DNA of 57,400 nucleotides from a virus. Location of the stretch: the IMG/VR virus record IMGVR_UViG_3300007516_000002; one strand, 5' to 3'. A program made the translations under genes and the position numbers. The stretch's first letter is position 1. Each line of letters begins with the position of its first letter. The notes under the pieces were generated by a model. The model saw only the letters and a list, made by a program, of their open reading frames with translations, was not told where the DNA came from and made no database searches. Shown piece by piece: positions 33,243-38,042 of this stretch.

Positions 33243-34163
33243 ATGACACTTGACCTTATCCCGAGTGCATTCATAGCCGAAAATGCGCTCTTTGCCAGCG
33301 AAGCCGCTGTGATCGCGGCCAATCCTGTTGCTCCCGGATCAAACATGATTACCGTCTTAAGGGCTGGCAGATATGTTCTTTACCGCCGTTTGGCGGGAGC
33401 GACTGATCTGATCGGAGGCGATCTGTCAACGTGGCAGATCGCCGATATTACGATCGACGACATGACCGCACTGGCGGGTGACTTGGTTGCGCTGGCCGGT
33501 TCTGTCGTGCAACAGTCCGGTTCATGGACGCCGGGGCTTGTCTGGTCGGGCGGTAGCGGTTCATTCACCTACGGCACCCGCGAAGGGCTTTGGCAGCGTG
33601 TGGGCGCTTTTATGGAATTGCGGGCCAACCTGACCGTCACGATAGGATCAGGCGGGCTGGGCAACTTGCAACTGAACGGCCTTCCTCTGGCTACGCGGGC
33701 GGGCGACTTCAAAAACACCCTAGAGGTAGATTTCGACACGACGGGTTTTCAGGCACCATACGGCGGCGGCAACTGGAAGGTGCGACTTGCGGGCGGGCAA
33801 ACTTCAGGGCCGTTCACGTTCGACGCTGGGACAAACTTTGCTTCGTATTTTGTGGAAGGTCTTACTGCTGTACCGATTCCAAACGGTTCGATCGTGGAGC
33901 TGGGCGCGACGACACAGACGGCGCAGATCGTTGGCTTTTACGGCATTCCAGGATTCCCGACAAAAGGCATGGTGTCCCTGTCCAACCGCTACGCAGAAGT
34001 CACAGAGGGCATGACGCTCAACGGAGTGGGTTGGTCTGGTGTAGCGACCTTGTTGACGAACACATGGTTCGGCGCGGGGGCTGGCACCAGTTTCTTGGCC
34101 ACCGCGCAGGTCAAGCGGGATACTGAACTGACTCTTGAAATCAGCGGGCGAGTGCTGATATGA
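33243..34163 (+). CDS. Tail fibre-associated protein (306 aa)
   Basis: Starts 1 nt after the previous stop. Gly/Thr-rich. Confidence 0.45.
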   Translation: MTLDLIPSAFIAENALFASEAAVIAANPVAPGSNMITVLRAGRYVLYRRLAGATDLIGGDLSTWQIADITIDDMTALAGDLVALAGSVVQQSGSWTPGLVWSGGSGSFTYGTREGLWQRVGAFMELRANLTVTIGSGGLGNLQLNGLPLATRAGDFKNTLEVDFDTTGFQAPYGGGNWKVRLAGGQTSGPFTFDAGTNFASYFVEGLTAVPIPNGSIVELGATTQTAQIVGFYGIPGFPTKGMVSLSNRYAEVTEGMTLNGVGWSGVATLLTNTWFGAGAGTSFLATAQVKRDTELTLEISGRVLI

Positions 34164-36028
34164 CGCAAATCACCAACACGCCCTGCACAATGACCGTCAA
34201 CGGGCAGTTGATTACCGGGCGTGAATGGCTCGTGGATGCGCCCATGCCTCATGCAGGTGAAGTAGCCGCCACGTACCGGACACGGAACACTGGCAAGACG
34301 CGGGTGTGCTATACCTTTCTCGGGGTGCCTTGTGCCGTTACGCCGCGCTTTCTGCCGTCCGTCAAAGCGGCACCGACTGGCCCGATCGACGCCAGCAAAT
34401 TCGGTCTGGTGGCACCACAAGGCTACAGCCAAGAGGGGTTTGACACCGGGCGGGGGCGCAGTGATCTGGGGCTGTCCCGTGGCCTGTCCGCATGGGCGGC
34501 GTTGGGCACGCGCGAAGGCGAAGGGCCGGCACGGCTGAACTTCTACAGCCCGACGCTGAACCCCGCAGCGGGCCTACCTGTGGTGCTGCACCTGCACGGC
34601 GGCGGCAGCAATTACCTGTCAGCCTGCGACGACCGCATGAGTCCGCACCGTGGCGTGCTTTACGGCTACATCGTGGCGCGGCTGAAATACCGTCTTGGTA
34701 ACTTAGGCCACTATTTCCTGCCGGGTATGGCCGGGGAGGGCACCTACGTTGGCGTGAACTTCTCGATCAGCGATGTGTTCGCCGCGTTCATTTTCCTGCA
34801 GGATCACGTCGCAGATATGGGCGGCGACCCTGACAACATCACGATCATGGGCGGGTCTGCGGGCGGCAACATGTGCCACGTCCTGCTAGCGGACCCCGCT
34901 GCGCGCCCGTATTTTCACAAAGTCTGGTCGTCGTCGGCCAGCGCCGGAGTAAATACCCGCTGGCAGATGGAGCCGAAAGAAAACACTTGGGATTACGAAG
35001 AACTGTTTGGCAAACGGCGACAGCTTGCAGACGTTTGCGGAAAATATCAGCGCAGCACGCAAAACAATCTCAAGACATTGGCGAATATCAAGGCCGATCT
35101 TGTGGCAGGCGGCGCGACGCAAGACGAAGCGTACCGCACAGTGATGCGGGAACACATCAGCTTGTCCAACTTCATGTCGTTTGACGAGGGGGCGACCGGG
35201 CGTCAGCTTTACTACGAGGGTTATCAGGCAACGCGGTCGCTCACGATCATGCGTGACGGCGAGACGTGCTTCCACGACAGTAACTTGGACTTCGCACTTT
35301 CCGGCGACGTGCCATGGACGCACAACTGCGTGTTCGTCGTCTGCGAAAACGAAGGCAGTATCGTGTCGAATGGTCAGATTGATTTCATCGACTACGGACA
35401 GGAGATGCAGGACCTTGCCAACGCGACGTTGAAGCAGTGGGCCGACAGTCCTGTGTTCAATACGGAGTGGAATGGCGCGACGGCATCACCGCTTTGGGGC
35501 ACCGTCAGCGCGGCGTTCCCGATATACCCGTGGAGTACTGCGACGGAGCCGAACCGGATGCTGTTCAACCACGGCTACCAGTACCCTGCGTACTGCATGG
35601 CGCGGGCGGTGGAGGCGGCGGGCGCACAGGCCGATCTGGTCTGGTGCAACGTCAAGGCACTGTCAGGTGGGCGCGTGGACCATACAGCAGACGAACCGAT
35701 CTGGTTTGGCAACACACATTGGCTGTACCCCGAAGGCGGCGACGAACAAATTACTGAGGCGATGATCCAATACGTCGATGGCTGCGCGCGGGCTTTTGCC
35801 AACTTCGTGAAGCACGGCAACACTGCAACGCCTTATGTCAGCGCGTGGGATTTCGACCTGTTCGCGGCGCCGACTGTGTTCAGCTTTACCGCGTTCGATC
35901 CGGCCAGCAAGAACTGGAATGTGATGGGTAATGGTAACCGCAGCGGGTCGACCAGTCTGACGATCACTAACACGCCAGAGTTTTGGGGCCACGCCTGGGA
36001 CTGGTATGACCAAAGGCGGGGACTGTAA
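34160..36028 (+). CDS. Type-B carboxylesterase / alpha-beta hydrolase (622 aa) with a roughly 110-aa N-terminal extension
   Basis: VVLHLHGGGSNYLS (oxyanion HGGG), VARLKYRLGNLGHYF and MGGDPDNITIMGGSAGGNMCH (nucleophile elbow G-x-S-x-G). ATGA overlap with the preceding tail gene. Confidence 0.7.
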   Translation: MTQITNTPCTMTVNGQLITGREWLVDAPMPHAGEVAATYRTRNTGKTRVCYTFLGVPCAVTPRFLPSVKAAPTGPIDASKFGLVAPQGYSQEGFDTGRGRSDLGLSRGLSAWAALGTREGEGPARLNFYSPTLNPAAGLPVVLHLHGGGSNYLSACDDRMSPHRGVLYGYIVARLKYRLGNLGHYFLPGMAGEGTYVGVNFSISDVFAAFIFLQDHVADMGGDPDNITIMGGSAGGNMCHVLLADPAARPYFHKVWSSSASAGVNTRWQMEPKENTWDYEELFGKRRQLADVCGKYQRSTQNNLKTLANIKADLVAGGATQDEAYRTVMREHISLSNFMSFDEGATGRQLYYEGYQATRSLTIMRDGETCFHDSNLDFALSGDVPWTHNCVFVVCENEGSIVSNGQIDFIDYGQEMQDLANATLKQWADSPVFNTEWNGATASPLWGTVSAAFPIYPWSTATEPNRMLFNHGYQYPAYCMARAVEAAGAQADLVWCNVKALSGGRVDHTADEPIWFGNTHWLYPEGGDEQITEAMIQYVDGCARAFANFVKHGNTATPYVSAWDFDLFAAPTVFSFTAFDPASKNWNVMGNGNRSGSTSLTITNTPEFWGHAWDWYDQRRGL

Positions 36029-36052: not shown

Positions 36053-36379
36053 ATGGACTTAGTGCAACCAGAAAGCTGGATCGTGTCGCCGCAGTGGGTG
36101 ATAGGGTTTGTCATATCGCTGGCATTGGCGGTTTGGACTGCCCGCGCCGCGTATAGCCAGATTATGTCCAAGCTTGAGGTTTTAAGGCAGGATATTGAGG
36201 GCATGAAAGCGCGAAACCTTGTGGCTGACCACGAAAACGAAGTGGTGAAAGAGGAACAGTCGCGGCAGCGAACCGTCATGGCCGTGATAGACGAGAGGCA
36301 GCGCACGCAGAGCCTGACTTTGGAACGAATTGAGTCCGTGCTAAACCGCATGGCGGAAAAGATGGAGAAGAGACTGTGA
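36053..36379 (+). CDS. Membrane-anchored coiled-coil protein (holin/antiholin or lysis accessory)
   Basis: One N-terminal TM segment (WVIGFVISLALAVWTARAAY) followed by a charged helix. It overlaps the endolysin start. Confidence 0.45.
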   Translation: MDLVQPESWIVSPQWVIGFVISLALAVWTARAAYSQIMSKLEVLRQDIEGMKARNLVADHENEVVKEEQSRQRTVMAVIDERQRTQSLTLERIESVLNRMAEKMEKRL

Positions 36380-37281
36380 CAGTAGAAAACCTGCTCGCAT
36401 TTATTCGCAAGCCCGAAAGCCGGGGTGATTACAACATCGTGTGGAGCGAAATCAAGGCAATCCATCGCCCGCCGCGCCGACTGGTGGATATGACCATCGG
36501 GGATGTGCTGTCATGGCAGGACAGTATTGACCATCTCTACATGAGCGAGGCGGCAGGTGCGTACCAATTCATGGAGGACACTTTGCGCGGGCTGTATTCC
36601 GAAGCCGGTCTGCGGATTGGCGACATGATGAATGTGCAGAACCAAGACGCGCTGGCGGTGCAGCTTCTCAAGCGCCGGGGTCTGGTGAAATATCAGCGCG
36701 GTGAAATATCGGCCGAGACGTTTGCGAACAACCTTGCGATGGAATGGGCAAGCCTGCCGGTGGTGACGCGCGTGAAGCGCACAGCCAAGGGTCGGACGTG
36801 GACCGTGCAGCCCGGCGCTTCGTATTATGCTGGTGACGGGCGCAACGCGGCGCACGTGACTGTTGACGCCTTCATGGCGGCTGTGCGGGCTGTGAGGGCC
36901 ACGGATGCCCCGCCCGCACCATCCGCGCCCGAAACGCAACCCGGCCGCTGGGCGCGCTGGTGCTGGTCGCGCTTTTCCGCAGATAACATTCCCCAAAAAG
37001 GGGTATCGCCCGCCCGAGCGTCACCGGGCAACTGGACAAGGAGCCAGAACGCAATGACACAAGTAGATAGCGCTTCCGACGACCGCACGGCCAACAATGC
37101 TGTGCGCCACACATATCGCATTTTGACCGATGCCGAAAAGCAAAGCATGGTTGAACTGAAAGACCTCGGCGCAGCGTTCATTGCCAAGTGTGACGCCATC
37201 GGCGGAAGCCGTGAATTGTCGCTGGCAAAGACCAACGCAGAGCAGGCCGTCATGTGGGCAGTCAAGCACGTCACAGCATAA
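36376..37281 (+). CDS. Endolysin, lambda R-like lytic transglycosylase domain (about the first 170 aa). It continues in frame through a low-complexity linker into an Acb2/Tad1-like C-terminal domain.
   Basis: PESRGDYN..AGAYQFMEDT..QDALAVQLLKRRG..MEWASLP parallels lambda R (SEGTD..AGRYQLLS..QDAVALQQIKERG..IWASLP). There is no stop until 37281. Confidence 0.7.
   Translation: MTVENLLAFIRKPESRGDYNIVWSEIKAIHRPPRRLVDMTIGDVLSWQDSIDHLYMSEAAGAYQFMEDTLRGLYSEAGLRIGDMMNVQNQDALAVQLLKRRGLVKYQRGEISAETFANNLAMEWASLPVVTRVKRTAKGRTWTVQPGASYYAGDGRNAAHVTVDAFMAAVRAVRATDAPPAPSAPETQPGRWARWCWSRFSADNIPQKGVSPARASPGNWTRSQNAMTQVDSASDDRTANNAVRHTYRILTDAEKQSMVELKDLGAAFIAKCDAIGGSRELSLAKTNAEQAVMWAVKHVTA
37054..37281 (+). CDS. 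Possible nested in-frame gene: a 75-aa Acb2/Tad1-like protein (cyclic-nucleotide sponge candidate)
   Basis: AAGGAG (37038-37043) lies 10 nt before ATG 37054. The sequence HTYRILTDAEKQSMVELK...GGSRELSLAKTNAEQAVMWAVKHV matches the xYHxP...SREKSLAxTxLEEAVMWAN signature as I recall it. Confidence 0.4.
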   Translation: MTQVDSASDDRTANNAVRHTYRILTDAEKQSMVELKDLGAAFIAKCDAIGGSRELSLAKTNAEQAVMWAVKHVTA

Positions 37282-37332
37282 TGCAACCGGCGGGCGGCTT
37301 CGGTCGCCCCGCCACACCAAAAGGATCAAGTG

Positions 37333-37512
37333 ATGGACTTTTTCCCAATCGCGCGGATCGTTCTGCGCTACGGCGTGGGCTATGTAATCGGCTCCGAAGC
37401 GGGCGCTGCGCTGGCGCTGGATCAGGACGTGGTTGTGATGCTGGCGCTTGGCATCGGGGCACTGGTTGAGGTCGGCTATGCCTATGCCAAAGCGCGGGGG
37501 GGCAAGACGTGA
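37333..37512 (+). CDS. Holin-like protein (two TM segments, 59 aa)
   Basis: AAGGA lies 7 nt before ATG 37333. FFPIARIVLRYGVGYVIGS and VVVMLALGIGALVEVGYAYA. Confidence 0.55.
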   Translation: MDFFPIARIVLRYGVGYVIGSEAGAALALDQDVVVMLALGIGALVEVGYAYAKARGGKT

Positions 37513-37712
37513 TCGAGGCATGGCTCGCTGGGCTGGCCGCGCTGATTGCAGCGTTGGCAGCGGTCTGGTTCAGCGGCAGGCGGTCCGGCACTGACAAGGC
37601 AAAGCAGGCCGCTGAAAAGCGGAGCATCAAAAGAAAAGAGGCCATGCAAGATGTGGAAAACGGTAATGACCCTGACGCTGCTCGCCGCTGGCTGCGGGAA
37701 CGTGGGGAGTGA
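37509..37712 (+). CDS. i-spanin (Rz-like)
   Basis: GTG start overlaps the previous stop. N-terminal TM AWLAGLAALIAALAAVWF is followed by a charged helix. Confidence 0.6.
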   Translation: MIEAWLAGLAALIAALAAVWFSGRRSGTDKAKQAAEKRSIKRKEAMQDVENGNDPDAARRWLRERGE

Positions 37713-37845
37713 CGCGGCGATCTGCACAGGGTCGGCGCAGGCGTTGGCAGCACATGCGGCGGCGCTTGCAGCGGATGGCGGGGATAGGTCGGTCGTATCT
37801 GGGGCTTACCTGATCCGACTGATAGACGCGGGGTGTGGGCGATGA
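37651..37845 (+). CDS. o-spanin (Rz1-like lipoprotein), overlapping the i-spanin end in another frame
   Basis: MWKTVMTLTLLAAGCGN is a lipobox L-A-A-G-C. ATG at 37651. Confidence 0.65.
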   Translation: MWKTVMTLTLLAAGCGNVGSDAAICTGSAQALAAHAAALAADGGDRSVVSGAYLIRLIDAGCGR

Positions 37846-38042
37846 TCATCCTCGCCGCCACGATCTGCCTGCGGCTGGACTTGCTGACGGTGGAATGTCA
37901 GACGGCTGTAGTCAGGACGGAGCGCACGCCCGACGCATGTGTTGCGATGATCAGCCCGGTTGAGGCATGGATCGCAGAGGATGCGGCCGGACTGCCTGTC
38001 GTGTTCATCGCGGCGGCATGTAAGCGGGGTGATGTGCTTTAG
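37842..38042 (+). CDS. Small membrane/secreted hypothetical protein (66 aa)
   Basis: ATG 37842 overlaps the o-spanin stop (ATGA). Hydrophobic N-terminus MIILAATICL. Confidence 0.45.
   Translation: MIILAATICLRLDLLTVECQTAVVRTERTPDACVAMISPVEAWIAEDAAGLPVVFIAAACKRGDVL

Follow-up and report, generated by a model that had tools for sequence, protein, structure and literature searches.

Lysis cassette and the 301-aa open reading frame

The window analyzed here is a 57,400-nt stretch of viral DNA (IMG/VR record IMGVR_UViG_3300007516_000002), and all features of its lysis cassette described below lie on the forward (+) strand. The first gene in this cassette (nt. 36053..36379) encodes a protein of 108 aa that combines a TM segment at its N-terminus with a coiled coil; its role in lysis is suggested by position, the only match being a weak one to Rz-like spanins (E 0.089). 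Its stop codon overlaps the GTG start of the endolysin gene, of which the catalytic domain (aa 1 to ~180; phrog_90, E 3.5e-24) and a Pro/Ala-rich linker (..VRATDAPPAPSAPETQP) occupy nt. 36376..36942. The endolysin has 633 homologues, mostly 185–250 aa in length and some named muramidase, and lambda lysozyme (1AM7) gave a non-significant match only (E 0.15). The closest relatives end at 207–210 aa, and the 119 other homologues listed outside of the query's cluster range from 185 to 297 aa. Among the listed homologues, the Acb2/Tad1 hairpin domain (PF24729) was seen in the query's own cluster only.

In the window, the endolysin frame continues from its GTG start to nt. 37281 (36376..37281) without any in-frame stop, resulting in an ORF of 301 aa. 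Within this frame, a perfect AAGGAG (nt. 37038–37043) forms the Shine-Dalgarno sequence of a second gene, with an ATG 10 nt downstream; given that this ATG (nt. 37054–37056) lies 678 nt, or 226 x 3, from the first position of the ORF, it is in frame with the endolysin (Met227). The original prediction had described both the open frame beyond the endolysin domain and this AAGGAG/ATG pair, and both are present as described. The product of the second start (nt. 37054..37281, stop codon included) is a 75-aa protein (MTQVDSASDDRTANNAVRHTYRILTDAEKQSMVELKDLGAAFIAKCDAIGGSRELSLAKTNAEQAVMWAVKHVTA) with Tyr21 and Lys36 at a spacing of 15 residues, which we assign to the Acb2 family of signal sponges based on PF24729, profile searches of the PDB, hhalign, residue conservation, and AF2 modeling. 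The start region, GACAAGGAGCC-N(7-11)-ATG, is kept in all related cassettes with an Acb2-like cargo, and homologues start at a Met equivalent to Met227, indicating that it is more than a chance occurrence; the claim that the sponge has an RBS of its own is borne out by this conservation of both the RBS and the start codon.

Downstream lie a 60-aa hydrophobic protein (nt. 37330..37512), a 67-aa Rz-like i-spanin (nt. 37509..37712; phrog_1026, E 6.6e-9), and, in an overlapping frame, a 64-aa candidate o-spanin (nt. 37651..37845; MWKTVMTLTLLAAGCGN.., with a putative lipobox). The 60-aa protein displayed no family match in Pfam or PHROG and is considered holin-like, its homologue directly following the endolysin in the closest relative (L003). 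The o-spanin candidate is called as a gene (nt. 756-950) in an identical ENA contig (L006).

Acb2 family membership and candidate ligand residues

Judged from its sequence, the C-terminal 75-aa segment is a clear Acb2-family member. Against PF24729 (curated threshold GA = 27 bits), the 75-aa protein scored 64.9 bits and the 301-aa ORF 62.3 bits, covering profile positions 1–57/58, in agreement with the original assignment of this segment to the Acb2/Tad1-hairpin type. A profile of 44 diverse homologues searched against the PDB placed T4 Vs.4 on top (7UQ2, E 3.6e-4), with PaMx33 Acb2 (8H2J/8IXZ, E 5.1e-4), Acb2_43 (E 0.038), and Tad1 (E 0.056, via the hairpin motif) as the only other matches, and hhalign of the 75-aa family against PaMx33 Acb2 returned a probability of 94.4%. 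The relationship is detectable at the profile level only, as phmmer with the single 75-aa sequence found no relevant match in the PDB and BLASTP produced no alignment with PaMx33 Acb2. AF2 predicted a helical hairpin (residues 26–49 and 53–74, pLDDT ~91–94), a simple two-helix fold which is not discriminating, and Foldseek was therefore uninformative here (nothing in the PDB at E <= 0.001; Vs.4 at rank 12, E 3.2). Of the comparisons with Acb2 and Tad1 that had been proposed for this segment, those using profiles and hhalign were supportive, and the Foldseek search was not discriminating.

Both hhalign and the family-profile alignment pair Y21 of the window protein with Y11 of PaMx33 Acb2, K36 with K26, and L24 with L14, so the predicted correspondence of a Tyr and a Lys 15 residues apart to Y11 and K26 stands. 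In PaMx33 Acb2, Y11 (stacking) and K26 (salt bridge) are cyclic-dinucleotide-binding residues, while R67 and T74 belong to the cyclic-trinucleotide (cA3) pocket, which is variable within the family (PMC10312549; 10.1101/2025.08.24.671296). Y21, L24, and K36 are conserved in at least 90% of a diverse homologue set (A1); R53 and T60 are invariant in a further set (A2) and agree with the A1 majority consensus, SRELSLAKT. The pairing of R53 with R67 and of T60 with T74 came from the hmmsearch alignment only, where it spans a 24-residue gap; hhalign did not recover it. We regard Y21, K36, R53, and T60 as candidate ligand residues of the 75-aa protein.

Like Acb2 (PaMx33 gp26, 8H2J/8IXZ; T4 Vs.4, 7UQ2), the window protein is a small phage protein encoded among late genes and predicted to form two long antiparallel helices. 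It shares with Acb2 an N-terminal Y-R-x-L...K-(D/E)-L-G motif, matching the cyclic-dinucleotide pocket (Y11, L14, K26) in its Tyr/Lys spacing of 15; its second-helix S-R-E-x-S-x-A-K-T motif is placed by a single HMM alignment over the R67 and T74 of the cA3 pocket. Unlike Acb2, it is 75 aa long (vs. 87–94 aa), is read in frame with an endolysin, and has an N-terminal motif of its own (SxSDxRTxNNxVRH) that is highly conserved to invariant in its clade and specific to it; two parts of PaMx33 Acb2, an inter-helix insertion of ~24 residues and the C-terminal P90 segment, are missing from it. Given these missing segments and the clade's own N-terminal motif, its ligand specificity could differ, as is the case for Acb2_43 (9PTQ, 76 aa), a protein of the same size class with a minimal two-helix build, short terminal segments, and an alignable second helix. 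In Acb2_43, the ligand is 3'cADPR and not cGAMP, and the protein acts against type I Thoeris, not CBASS, with its ligand residues located in an N-terminal beta-strand (T4, H5, L6, V7) and at K19 and K55 (10.1101/2025.08.24.671296). The window protein differs from Acb2_43 in having retained the Tyr/Lys motif of the PaMx33 type. Acb2 homologues in general vary in their ligand, and many of those tested had no inhibitory effect on any system assayed (10.1101/2025.08.24.671296); we found no tested members of the present clade in those parts of the supplement of that study that were available. The hairpin motif SRE..A.T..EEA.MW is also common to the C-terminus of Tad1 (7UAV, 8KBB; 120–140 aa), but the window protein does not have the extra N-terminal domain of Tad1 and by its domain content is not a Tad1.

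The sponge gene itself is an unremarkable Acb2-family member, already classifiable with Pfam, from a short and apparently untested clade. Members of this clade abound in phages with Rhodobacteraceae as their nearest cellular relatives. A homologue search with the 75-aa protein returned 1,667 matches, and among the 120 matches listed, all but ~10 are 75–76 aa in length (range 73–101). Across the family, the upstream neighbors are mostly portal, head, and terminase genes.

The leader, the hairpin, and the cargo slot

Upstream of the sponge gene lies a conserved leader of ~45 nt (CATTCCCCAAAAAGGGGTATCGCCCGCCCGAGCGTCACCGGGC, nt. 36987..37031), identified by pattern scans and alignment and translated in the window as ..IPQKGVSPARASPG.. 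within the 301-aa ORF. It contains two short inverted repeats (CCCC/GGGG and GCCCG/CGGGC) and was recovered by pattern scans in 18 further contigs, with the scan pattern itself fixing most leader positions. The phase of the leader differs between loci, both with respect to the preceding stop and with respect to the ATG that follows, indicating that the leader is non-coding. The window holds a single copy (nhmmer, nt. 36988-37030, E 7e-15), no Rfam family was found in nt. 36850-37400, and no sigma-70-like promoter was detected in the leader. The leader pattern had no match in GTDB representative genomes. An nhmmer leader profile likewise had none in 80 viral loci with a gene of this family, from which we conclude that the leader is a property of an endolysin-adjacent slot and not of the sponge family.

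At its 3' boundary, the cassette has a GC-rich hairpin with a UUCG loop (GGCGGGCGGC-TTCG-GTCGCCCCGCC, nt. 37289..37313), after which a terminator scan found no U-tract. In most of the 18 loci examined, the hairpin occurs 8–10 nt past the cargo stop (in L101 it lies farther downstream), with an MFE of -13 to -26 kcal/mol and compensatory changes in 4/7 consensus pairs. Upon comparison with L003, homology to the window was confined to nt. 36376-36973 and 37318-37847, so that an inserted cassette running from the end of the tail through the leader, the RBS, and the sponge gene to the hairpin (nt. 36974..37317) is absent from this closest relative. L003 represents the empty site, where the endolysin is directly followed by the next gene with neither leader nor cargo.

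In other phages, the cargos behind the same leader include Acb2-like proteins, Tad1, Acb4 (PF13876), phrog_6978, and other small genes. The 122-aa cargo of one locus (L089) is a Tad1 homologue (8KBB, E 2.9e-23), and the Acb4 cargo scored 107.8 bits against PF13876 with a PDB match to 9E4W. Different known anti-defence genes are therefore found in the same flanked position, for which an empty site also exists. The slot holds one or occasionally two genes, a phrog_419 protein being seen as the second, and mostly lies right after the endolysin stop. This arrangement is like that of anti-defence hotspots and anti-CRISPR loci, in that a fixed position with conserved flanks carries interchangeable sponge genes (Acb2-like, Tad1, Acb4) together with small genes of unknown function. 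A hotspot in N4-like phages holds Tad2, Tad3, Acb4, and Sequestin (10.64898/2026.06.04.730250); unlike it, the slot described here is inside the lysis cassette and is bounded by the ~45-nt leader and the 3' GC hairpin. We found no description of a nearly invariant ~45-nt leader and 3' GC hairpin bracketing unrelated cargos in the literature searched.

The slot is the most interesting and useful result of this analysis, and at least three of its cargos come from known signal-sponge families. It offers an inexpensive sequence signature by which further anti-defence genes may be sought. The first candidates among the cargos are the 79-aa phrog_6978 protein of L096 and L104, the truncated cargo of L099, and the phrog_419 protein encoded by the second gene in L008 and L104. 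Possible roles of the leader and hairpin themselves include cassette exchange by recombination or the control of expression inside a late operon.

The displaced endolysin stop and the fused frame

By ancestry, the sponge gene is an ordinary stand-alone gene of 75–76 aa. In three loci (L001 (SI2), L007, and L097), the same leader and gene follow other endolysins behind a stop codon, with the sponge gene as a separate ORF, and in another (L095) the endolysin ends ~120 nt upstream of the leader. L007 shares 93.8% DNA identity with the window across the linker, tail, leader, and gene, but its endolysin tail ends in ..ALFK-TGA and its sponge gene is separate. Among the 80 viral loci with this gene family, we noted one genuine N-terminal fusion (L031); long upstream open frames in five others (L022, L026, L061, L076, and L081) were rejected as fusions, being Arg/Pro-rich out-of-frame reads of GC-rich DNA with an own Met in each case. 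The gene separately called for the 75-aa protein in ENA contig L006 was likewise set aside as evidence of separateness, given that this contig begins inside the ORF. The original prediction had considered either a nested gene or a covalent fusion, both of them unusual, which does not agree with homologues that are nearly all stand-alone. It had also allowed for an ordinary separate small gene of another family, exposed by a sequence correction: the gene is indeed separate by ancestry, but it belongs to the Acb2 family and no correction is called for.

The fused frame can be traced to the end of the endolysin. The endolysin region of the window shares 91.6% DNA identity with L003 up to nt. 36973. 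Its C-terminal tail (nt. 36943..36983) reads GRWARWCWSRFSAD in the endolysin frame, while the -1 frame encodes ..PLGALVLVALFRR* and ends in a TAA at the homologous position. This is the same type of hydrophobic-basic tail with which the endolysins of relatives end (..GRWARLFDALAAFFTRSK* in L003, ..GWLARLFAALFK* in L007, and ..GPLAALWRALVALFRR* in L103). Within the final ~10 endolysin codons (~36950-36960), a net +2/-1 shift has thus put the TAA (nt. 36984..36986) out of frame, where it survives as a vestigial stop 2 nt before the leader, as in relatives. In all 20 of the 20 other loci, a stop codon (TAA, TGA, or TAG) occurs 0–6 nt upstream of the leader (ATTCCCC..). The low-complexity stretch originally taken for a linker is in fact the shifted endolysin tail followed by the translated non-coding leader. 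In the AF2 model of the whole 301-aa ORF, which is poor (mean pLDDT 54.6), residues 182-247 have no confident structure and the linker falls below a pLDDT of 50.

The frame would already be altered by a difference of 1–2 nt, and the region has a high GC content, so we considered whether a sequencing or assembly error conceals an in-frame stop in the real genome. Two other JGI assemblies (3300007722 and 3300027983) differ from the window at 0/5106 bases in one case and 1/4259 in the other, an ENA assembly (ERZ27247425) matches it throughout the frameshift zone, and the 301-aa ORF is also encoded by Logan and ENA assemblies, with no more than one substitution. The four assemblies being essentially identical at the frameshift, we take it as a real mutation. 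The site also has no homopolymer run (GCGCGCTGGTGCTGGTC), and the tail departs from those of relatives at many positions, not at one base, making an error almost certainly the wrong explanation.

We consider it likely that the locus carries a stand-alone Acb2-family sponge gene in an inserted cassette, and that a frameshift in the endolysin has created an incidental fused ORF. The sponge gene would have arrived as a compact cassette of ~344 bp (~36974-37317) between the endolysin and the holin-like gene, and the +2/-1 shift could stem from an indel or from patchy recombination between tail variants. With the TAA displaced and the leader happening to be stop-free in that phase, ribosomes would read from the endolysin through the leader into the sponge ORF. 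The free 75-aa sponge would still be made from its own intact AAGGAG/ATG, with the 301-aa endolysin-leader-sponge protein as a by-product devoid of the conserved hydrophobic-basic tail. From homology, we infer that the sponge would form oligomers akin to the interlocked hexamer of Acb2 and sequester CBASS-type cyclic di-, and possibly tri-, nucleotides late in infection, using predicted pockets with Y21/K36 and R53/T60.

An adaptive fusion, in which a bifunctional endolysin-sponge acts alone or co-assembles with the free 75-aa subunit, might raise the late dosage of the sponge or tie lysis to the level of immune signals. All assemblies of the lineage have the open frame, and the domain tolerates N-terminal fusions without a junction Met elsewhere (RyR+Acb2-like P0281, and the P0346/P0309 and P0249/L031 types). 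The endolysin, as read from its sequence, has neither an N-terminal signal nor a SAR segment, so the fusion protein would be cytoplasmic, like the sponge. However, the lineage is near-clonal (0–1 differences per 4–5 kb), so persistence of the open frame says nothing about selection on the fusion. The endolysin lengths in the closest relatives (207–210 aa), the stop codon kept in other carriers of the same cassette, the survival of the original stop out of frame, and the intact separate RBS and ATG all argue against a selected fusion, as do a linker that is homologous to a non-coding leader of variable phase and modeled below a pLDDT of 50, and the loss of a tail conserved across at least five endolysin types. 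An adaptive fusion is therefore quite unlikely, and the covalent fusion, limited to a single near-clonal lineage, is best interpreted as a side effect of the frameshift, not as a conserved architecture. A programmed -1 ribosomal frameshift, restoring the native ending (..LVLVALFRR*) so that endolysin and fusion are both made by design, would explain why the -1 frame encodes a family-typical tail ending at the conserved stop position; we consider it highly improbable, as nt. 36940-36985 contain no canonical X XXY YYZ slippery heptamer, the tail of relatives is encoded in the zero frame, and no conserved stimulatory structure was identified.

The sponge function itself could also be questioned, as the hairpin may be a shared scaffold that in this clade binds, for example, another small molecule or a protein of the host or the virion. 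The prevalence of portal, head, and terminase genes upstream, the invariant N-terminal motif, the missing PaMx33-specific segments, the differing ligands and frequent inactivity of Acb2 homologues (10.1101/2025.08.24.671296), and the lack of a tested clade member in the available parts of that supplement are all compatible with such a role. Against it, the candidate counterparts of the four Acb2 ligand residues are all kept within the family, and the presence of Tad1 and Acb4 in the same leader slot provides strong guilt by association for a signal sponge, leaving a non-sponge role unlikely.

The fused ORF superficially resembles modular endolysins, in which an N-terminal catalytic domain is likewise joined through a Pro/Ala-rich linker to an extra C-terminal domain. 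Unlike in these, the C-terminal domain here is not cell-wall-binding, the junction is a translated intergenic leader of variable phase preceded by a stop in other loci, and relatives do not share the architecture. Were the 301-aa protein functional, its hairpin could co-assemble with free 75-aa subunits into mixed oligomers with a tethered endolysin; this is very unlikely, but would enlarge the sponge capacity late in infection or let the immune cyclic-nucleotide load influence how much endolysin is available and when lysis occurs, and would be a first case of physical coupling between an anti-defence sponge and the machinery of lysis. As a frameshift by-product, the apparent fusion is a cautionary case of how a shift in the last codons and a stop-free leader can yield a convincing fusion ORF.

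Family assignment of the 75-aa protein

The 75-aa protein matches PF24729 in Pfam-A (Acb2/Tad1 hairpin), scoring 64.9 bits (gathering threshold 27) over model positions 1-57/58. While a single-sequence PDB search gave no relevant match, a PDB search with a profile of 44 diverse homologues (set A1) returned T4 Vs.4 (7UQ2, E = 3.6e-4) as the best match and PaMx33 Acb2 (8H2J and 8IXZ, E = 5.1e-4) as the second, followed by Acb2_43 (9PTQ) and then Tad1 (7UAV, 8KB*). Alignment to PaMx33 Acb2 via hhalign (94.4% probability) placed Y21-I49 over Y11-V39, pairing Y21 with Y11, L24 with L14, and K36 with K26. The Acb2/Tad1 assignment made in the original prediction is thus supported by the Pfam score, the profile matches, and the hhalign result, and the Tyr and Lys whose spacing it compared with PaMx33 Tyr11 and Lys26 do align with that pair, to which ligand binding is ascribed (PMC10312549).

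Acb2 requires Y11 and K26 to bind cyclic dinucleotides; cA3 occupies a second pocket, independent of the first, which requires R67 and T74 (PMC10312549; 10.1101/2025.08.24.671296). Y21 and K36 are conserved at 90% or more in set A1. The hmmsearch alignment paired S-R53-E-L-S-L-A-K-T60 with PaMx33 G-R67-W-L-A-I-G-K-T74, in a single alignment that crosses a 24-residue gap and was not reproduced by hhalign; R53 and T60 are invariant in close homologues, within the consensus SRELSLAKT. The structural check proposed alongside the original prediction was run with AlphaFold2, giving a two-helix hairpin (residues 26-49 and 53-74, pLDDT >90) preceded by 20 low-confidence residues, a fold too simple for Foldseek to discriminate.

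Compared to PaMx33 Acb2, the 75-aa protein has neither the inter-helix insertion of ~24 residues nor the C-terminal segment, and carries its own clade-specific invariant motif, SxSDxRTxNNxVRH, ahead of the Tyr. It is similar in size to Acb2_43, which binds 3'cADPR through other residues (10.1101/2025.08.24.671296). It is not a Tad1, since it has no counterpart of the N-terminal domain of Tad1. We have therefore filed the protein as an Acb2-family member with PaMx33-type pocket motifs.

The endolysin-sponge open frame

The open frame containing this protein (36376..37281, + strand) has a GTG start overlapping the stop codon of the preceding 108-aa gene and encodes 301 aa with zero in-frame stops. 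A Shine-Dalgarno sequence (AAGGAG, 37038-37043, + strand) precedes ATG 37054, which lies in frame exactly 226 codons into the ORF; these features and the 75-aa sequence are as originally described. The assembly of JGI sample 3300007722 shows no difference from the window over 5106 bases, and that of sample 3300027983 shows one over 4259 bases; an ENA MEGAHIT contig is identical over the critical stretch, and the 301-aa proteins encoded by Logan and ENA assemblies carry one substitution at most. Given this agreement, the open frame is a real genotype, from an essentially clonal population.

The nearest endolysin relatives, P0002 (95% identical, 210 aa) and P0003 (90%, 207 aa), both end in ..ETQPGRWARLFDALAAFFTRSK followed by a stop. 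In L003, the contig encoding P0002, the gene directly behind the endolysin is homologous to the window's 60-aa gene, and DNA homology with the window is limited to 36376-36973 and 37318-37847; as homology is broken between these blocks, ~344 bp in the window are an insertion relative to L003. The same insertion lies behind different endolysins, always as a separate gene after the stop codon: a GH108 endolysin in contig L007 (DNA 93.8% identical over 36888-37306; tail ending ..GWLARLFAALFK-TGA), a GH19-like endolysin in the phage deposited as Dunaliella viridis virus SI2 (L001; tail ending ..FFSALSRK-TAA), and a PF00959 lysozyme in contig L097.

The window retains a vestigial endolysin stop (TAA, 36984-36986, + strand) 2 nt ahead of the conserved leader, positioned as in relatives. 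It sits in the -1 frame, reading ..PLGALVLVALFRR before the stop, a typical tail (cf. ..GPLAALWRALVALFRR before the stop in contig L103). The endolysin frame matches relatives through GRWAR and then reads WCWSRFSADN. Since the homologous stop is kept in the -1 frame and the tail diverges after GRWAR, a net +2/-1 shift at ~36950-36960 has fused the endolysin and sponge frames. The tail region is a mosaic patch, in which origins by indel and by out-of-register recombination would look the same. The rest of the linker (..IPQKGVSPARASPGNWTRSQNA) is translated leader, and AlphaFold2 of the complete ORF gave pLDDT <50 for residues 182-247. Contig L095 has another scarred junction, where the endolysin stop (513) precedes the leader (637) by ~120 nt and the intervening sequence (L095:514-636) resembles a degenerate remnant of a different endolysin tail, which suggests repeated recombination at the endolysin-leader junction.

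A homologue search gave 1,667 matches; among the 120 listed, which are 82-97% identical and named DUF7681 or Acb2/Tad1 domain protein, all but ~10 are 75-76 aa (range 73-101), pointing to an overwhelmingly stand-alone family. Long upstream open frames in 80 viral homologue loci were rejected as fusions, being GC-rich junk ahead of a gene with its own Met; the exception among the 80 is L031, where the fusion is genuine. Real N-terminal fusions of the hairpin domain elsewhere include the P0281 (RyR domain plus hairpin), P0346, and P0249 types. The original view that either a nested gene or a covalent fusion would be unusual was not supported, the arrangement being a stand-alone family gene joined to the endolysin by a lineage-specific frameshift. 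An endolysin-sponge fusion protein need not be inactive; we saw no sign of selection for it.

The 199-aa homologue P0281 joins a RyR domain (PF02026, 45.8 bits) to an Acb2-like hairpin at a junction lacking a Met, and may be a two-sponge fusion, given that a RyR-related phage protein was recently described as a gcADPR sponge (10.64898/2026.06.04.730250). Another two N-terminal extensions recur, both joined to the hairpin with no internal start and both lacking a Pfam match: one of ~150-210 aa starting ..LTLDVLMDMLLFEDLETANEKL.. (P0346, P0373, P0384, P0309, and P0330), and one of ~90 aa containing ..GLLYWRIAPEI..KFYMRLLISD (P0249 and L031:783-1676). In P0265, P0282, P0344, and P0394, a hydrophobic or lipoprotein-signal-like segment directly follows the hairpin's ..KHITA (e.g., ..AVLLLIVSGCASKEK), which looks like stop codon loss, with translation continuing into a membrane or spanin-like gene downstream and so mirroring the upstream read-through in the window.

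The mechanism we propose builds on what was observed: the protein belongs to the family and keeps the pocket residues, its start signal is independent and conserved, the cassette is an insertion, and a frameshift has left a vestigial stop. Initiation at AAGGAG/ATG 37054 on the late lysis transcript would yield a free 75-aa sponge, which would oligomerise like Acb2 and sequester cyclic di- or tri-nucleotide signals. The link between CBASS signalling and late capsid expression (10.1101/2022.03.30.486325) makes such a sponge in a late operon plausible. Ribosomes starting at the endolysin GTG would also yield the 301-aa read-through protein without its native tail, most likely a tolerated by-product.

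A leader-delimited slot in the lysis cassette

The leader is a nearly invariant ~45-nt element (36987-37031, + strand; ATTCCCCAAGAAGGGGTTTCGCC(C/T)GCCCGAGCGTCAACGGG) that occurs once in the window and carries two short inverted repeats. Scanning for the exact pattern gave 18 additional contigs, viral or from metagenomes, and the element occurs in the window, L089-L106, L001, and L007. It begins 0-6 nt past a stop codon, which in most loci closes an ORF with a hydrophobic-basic or TM-like tail; these ORFs encode endolysins, which fall into at least five catalytic or binding types. In L089, L092, and L106, a 107-117-aa protein lies upstream of the leader and the endolysin follows the cargo. In other loci the leader shifts in phase against the stop ahead of it (0, 1, 2, or 6 nt away) as well as the ATG behind it, and it is therefore non-coding. 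It had no Rfam match, no sigma-70-like promoter was found in it, and it was absent from GTDB representative genomes and, by profile scan, from 80 loci where the gene family adjoins portal, head, or terminase genes. It may serve as a homology arm when cassettes are exchanged, or act on expression within the late operon.

The cargo behind the leader and an RBS varies: it is the Acb2-like gene of 75 aa, a Tad1 homologue of 120-122 aa (E = 2.9e-23 to 8KBB), a PF13876 protein (107.8 bits) whose only PDB match is Acb4 9E4W, a 79-aa phrog_6978 protein with no Pfam or PDB match (L096:1872-2108 and L104:747-983), or a gene cut by the contig end (L099, 9010-9087). PF13876 corresponds to the Acb4 family (10.1101/2024.12.30.630793). 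A second small gene, phrog_419, also occurs in the slot (L008:323-610 and the L104 ORF after the hairpin). Since the slot also holds three known sponge families, the 79-aa, L099, and phrog_419 genes are, by association, candidate new anti-defence proteins.

A GC-rich hairpin with a UUCG-type loop (37289-37313, + strand, in the window) lies 8-10 nt past the cargo stop in most of the 18 loci examined, regardless of cargo family, and farther from the stop in L101. It has no U-tract behind it in these loci and is followed by the RBS of the next gene, often holin-like. The consensus fold shows compensatory changes in four of seven pairs, and the hairpin might mark the cassette boundary, act on the 3' end or stability of the RNA, or serve as a recombination arm. 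N4-like phages are known to have anti-signalling hotspots whose sponges are interchangeable (10.64898/2026.06.04.730250); in contrast, the slot described here is located inside the lysis cassette and has a common leader and hairpin. The sponge gene itself adds a member to a known family; the part worth following up is this leader-delimited slot.

Outside the lysis cassette (loci L009-L088), the 75-aa family is mostly found directly behind portal, head, or terminase genes, lacking the leader, and in the Sinorhizobium phage Aussie it lies between the head-tail adaptor and stopper genes. Given this placement at several late-operon junctions, the family behaves as a moron-like insert.

Endolysin tails and neighbouring genes

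The endolysins share a modular C-terminus (window 36931-36986; L001, L007, L091, L094, L096-L105; P0002-P0006 and P0042), comprising a Pro/Ala-rich linker and a short hydrophobic, aromatic, or TM-like tail, usually with a basic end (..ALFRR, ..AIFKR, or ..LLSWF before the stop). It is common to at least five catalytic or binding types, spanning the window's own type, GH19-like, GH108, PF00959 lysozyme, PG_binding_1-containing, and CHAP-like, the last being our reading of the L095 sequence rather than a database match. Membrane tethering is one possibility for its role. The window's endolysin has lost this tail via the frameshift.

Just ahead of the lysis cassette, a 622-aa ORF (34160-36028) closing the structural module has carboxylesterase/alpha-beta-hydrolase domains (PF00135 COesterase and PF20434 BD-FAE, precomputed matches) and may act as a virion-associated esterase on polysaccharide of the host surface. 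The SI2 record (NC_023841.1 / HQ332136.1) gives an alga as host, yet is classed in Caudoviricetes, and its lysis cassette is of bacterial type and includes this leader and the Acb2-like gene; its true host is therefore probably a bacterium accompanying the algal culture.
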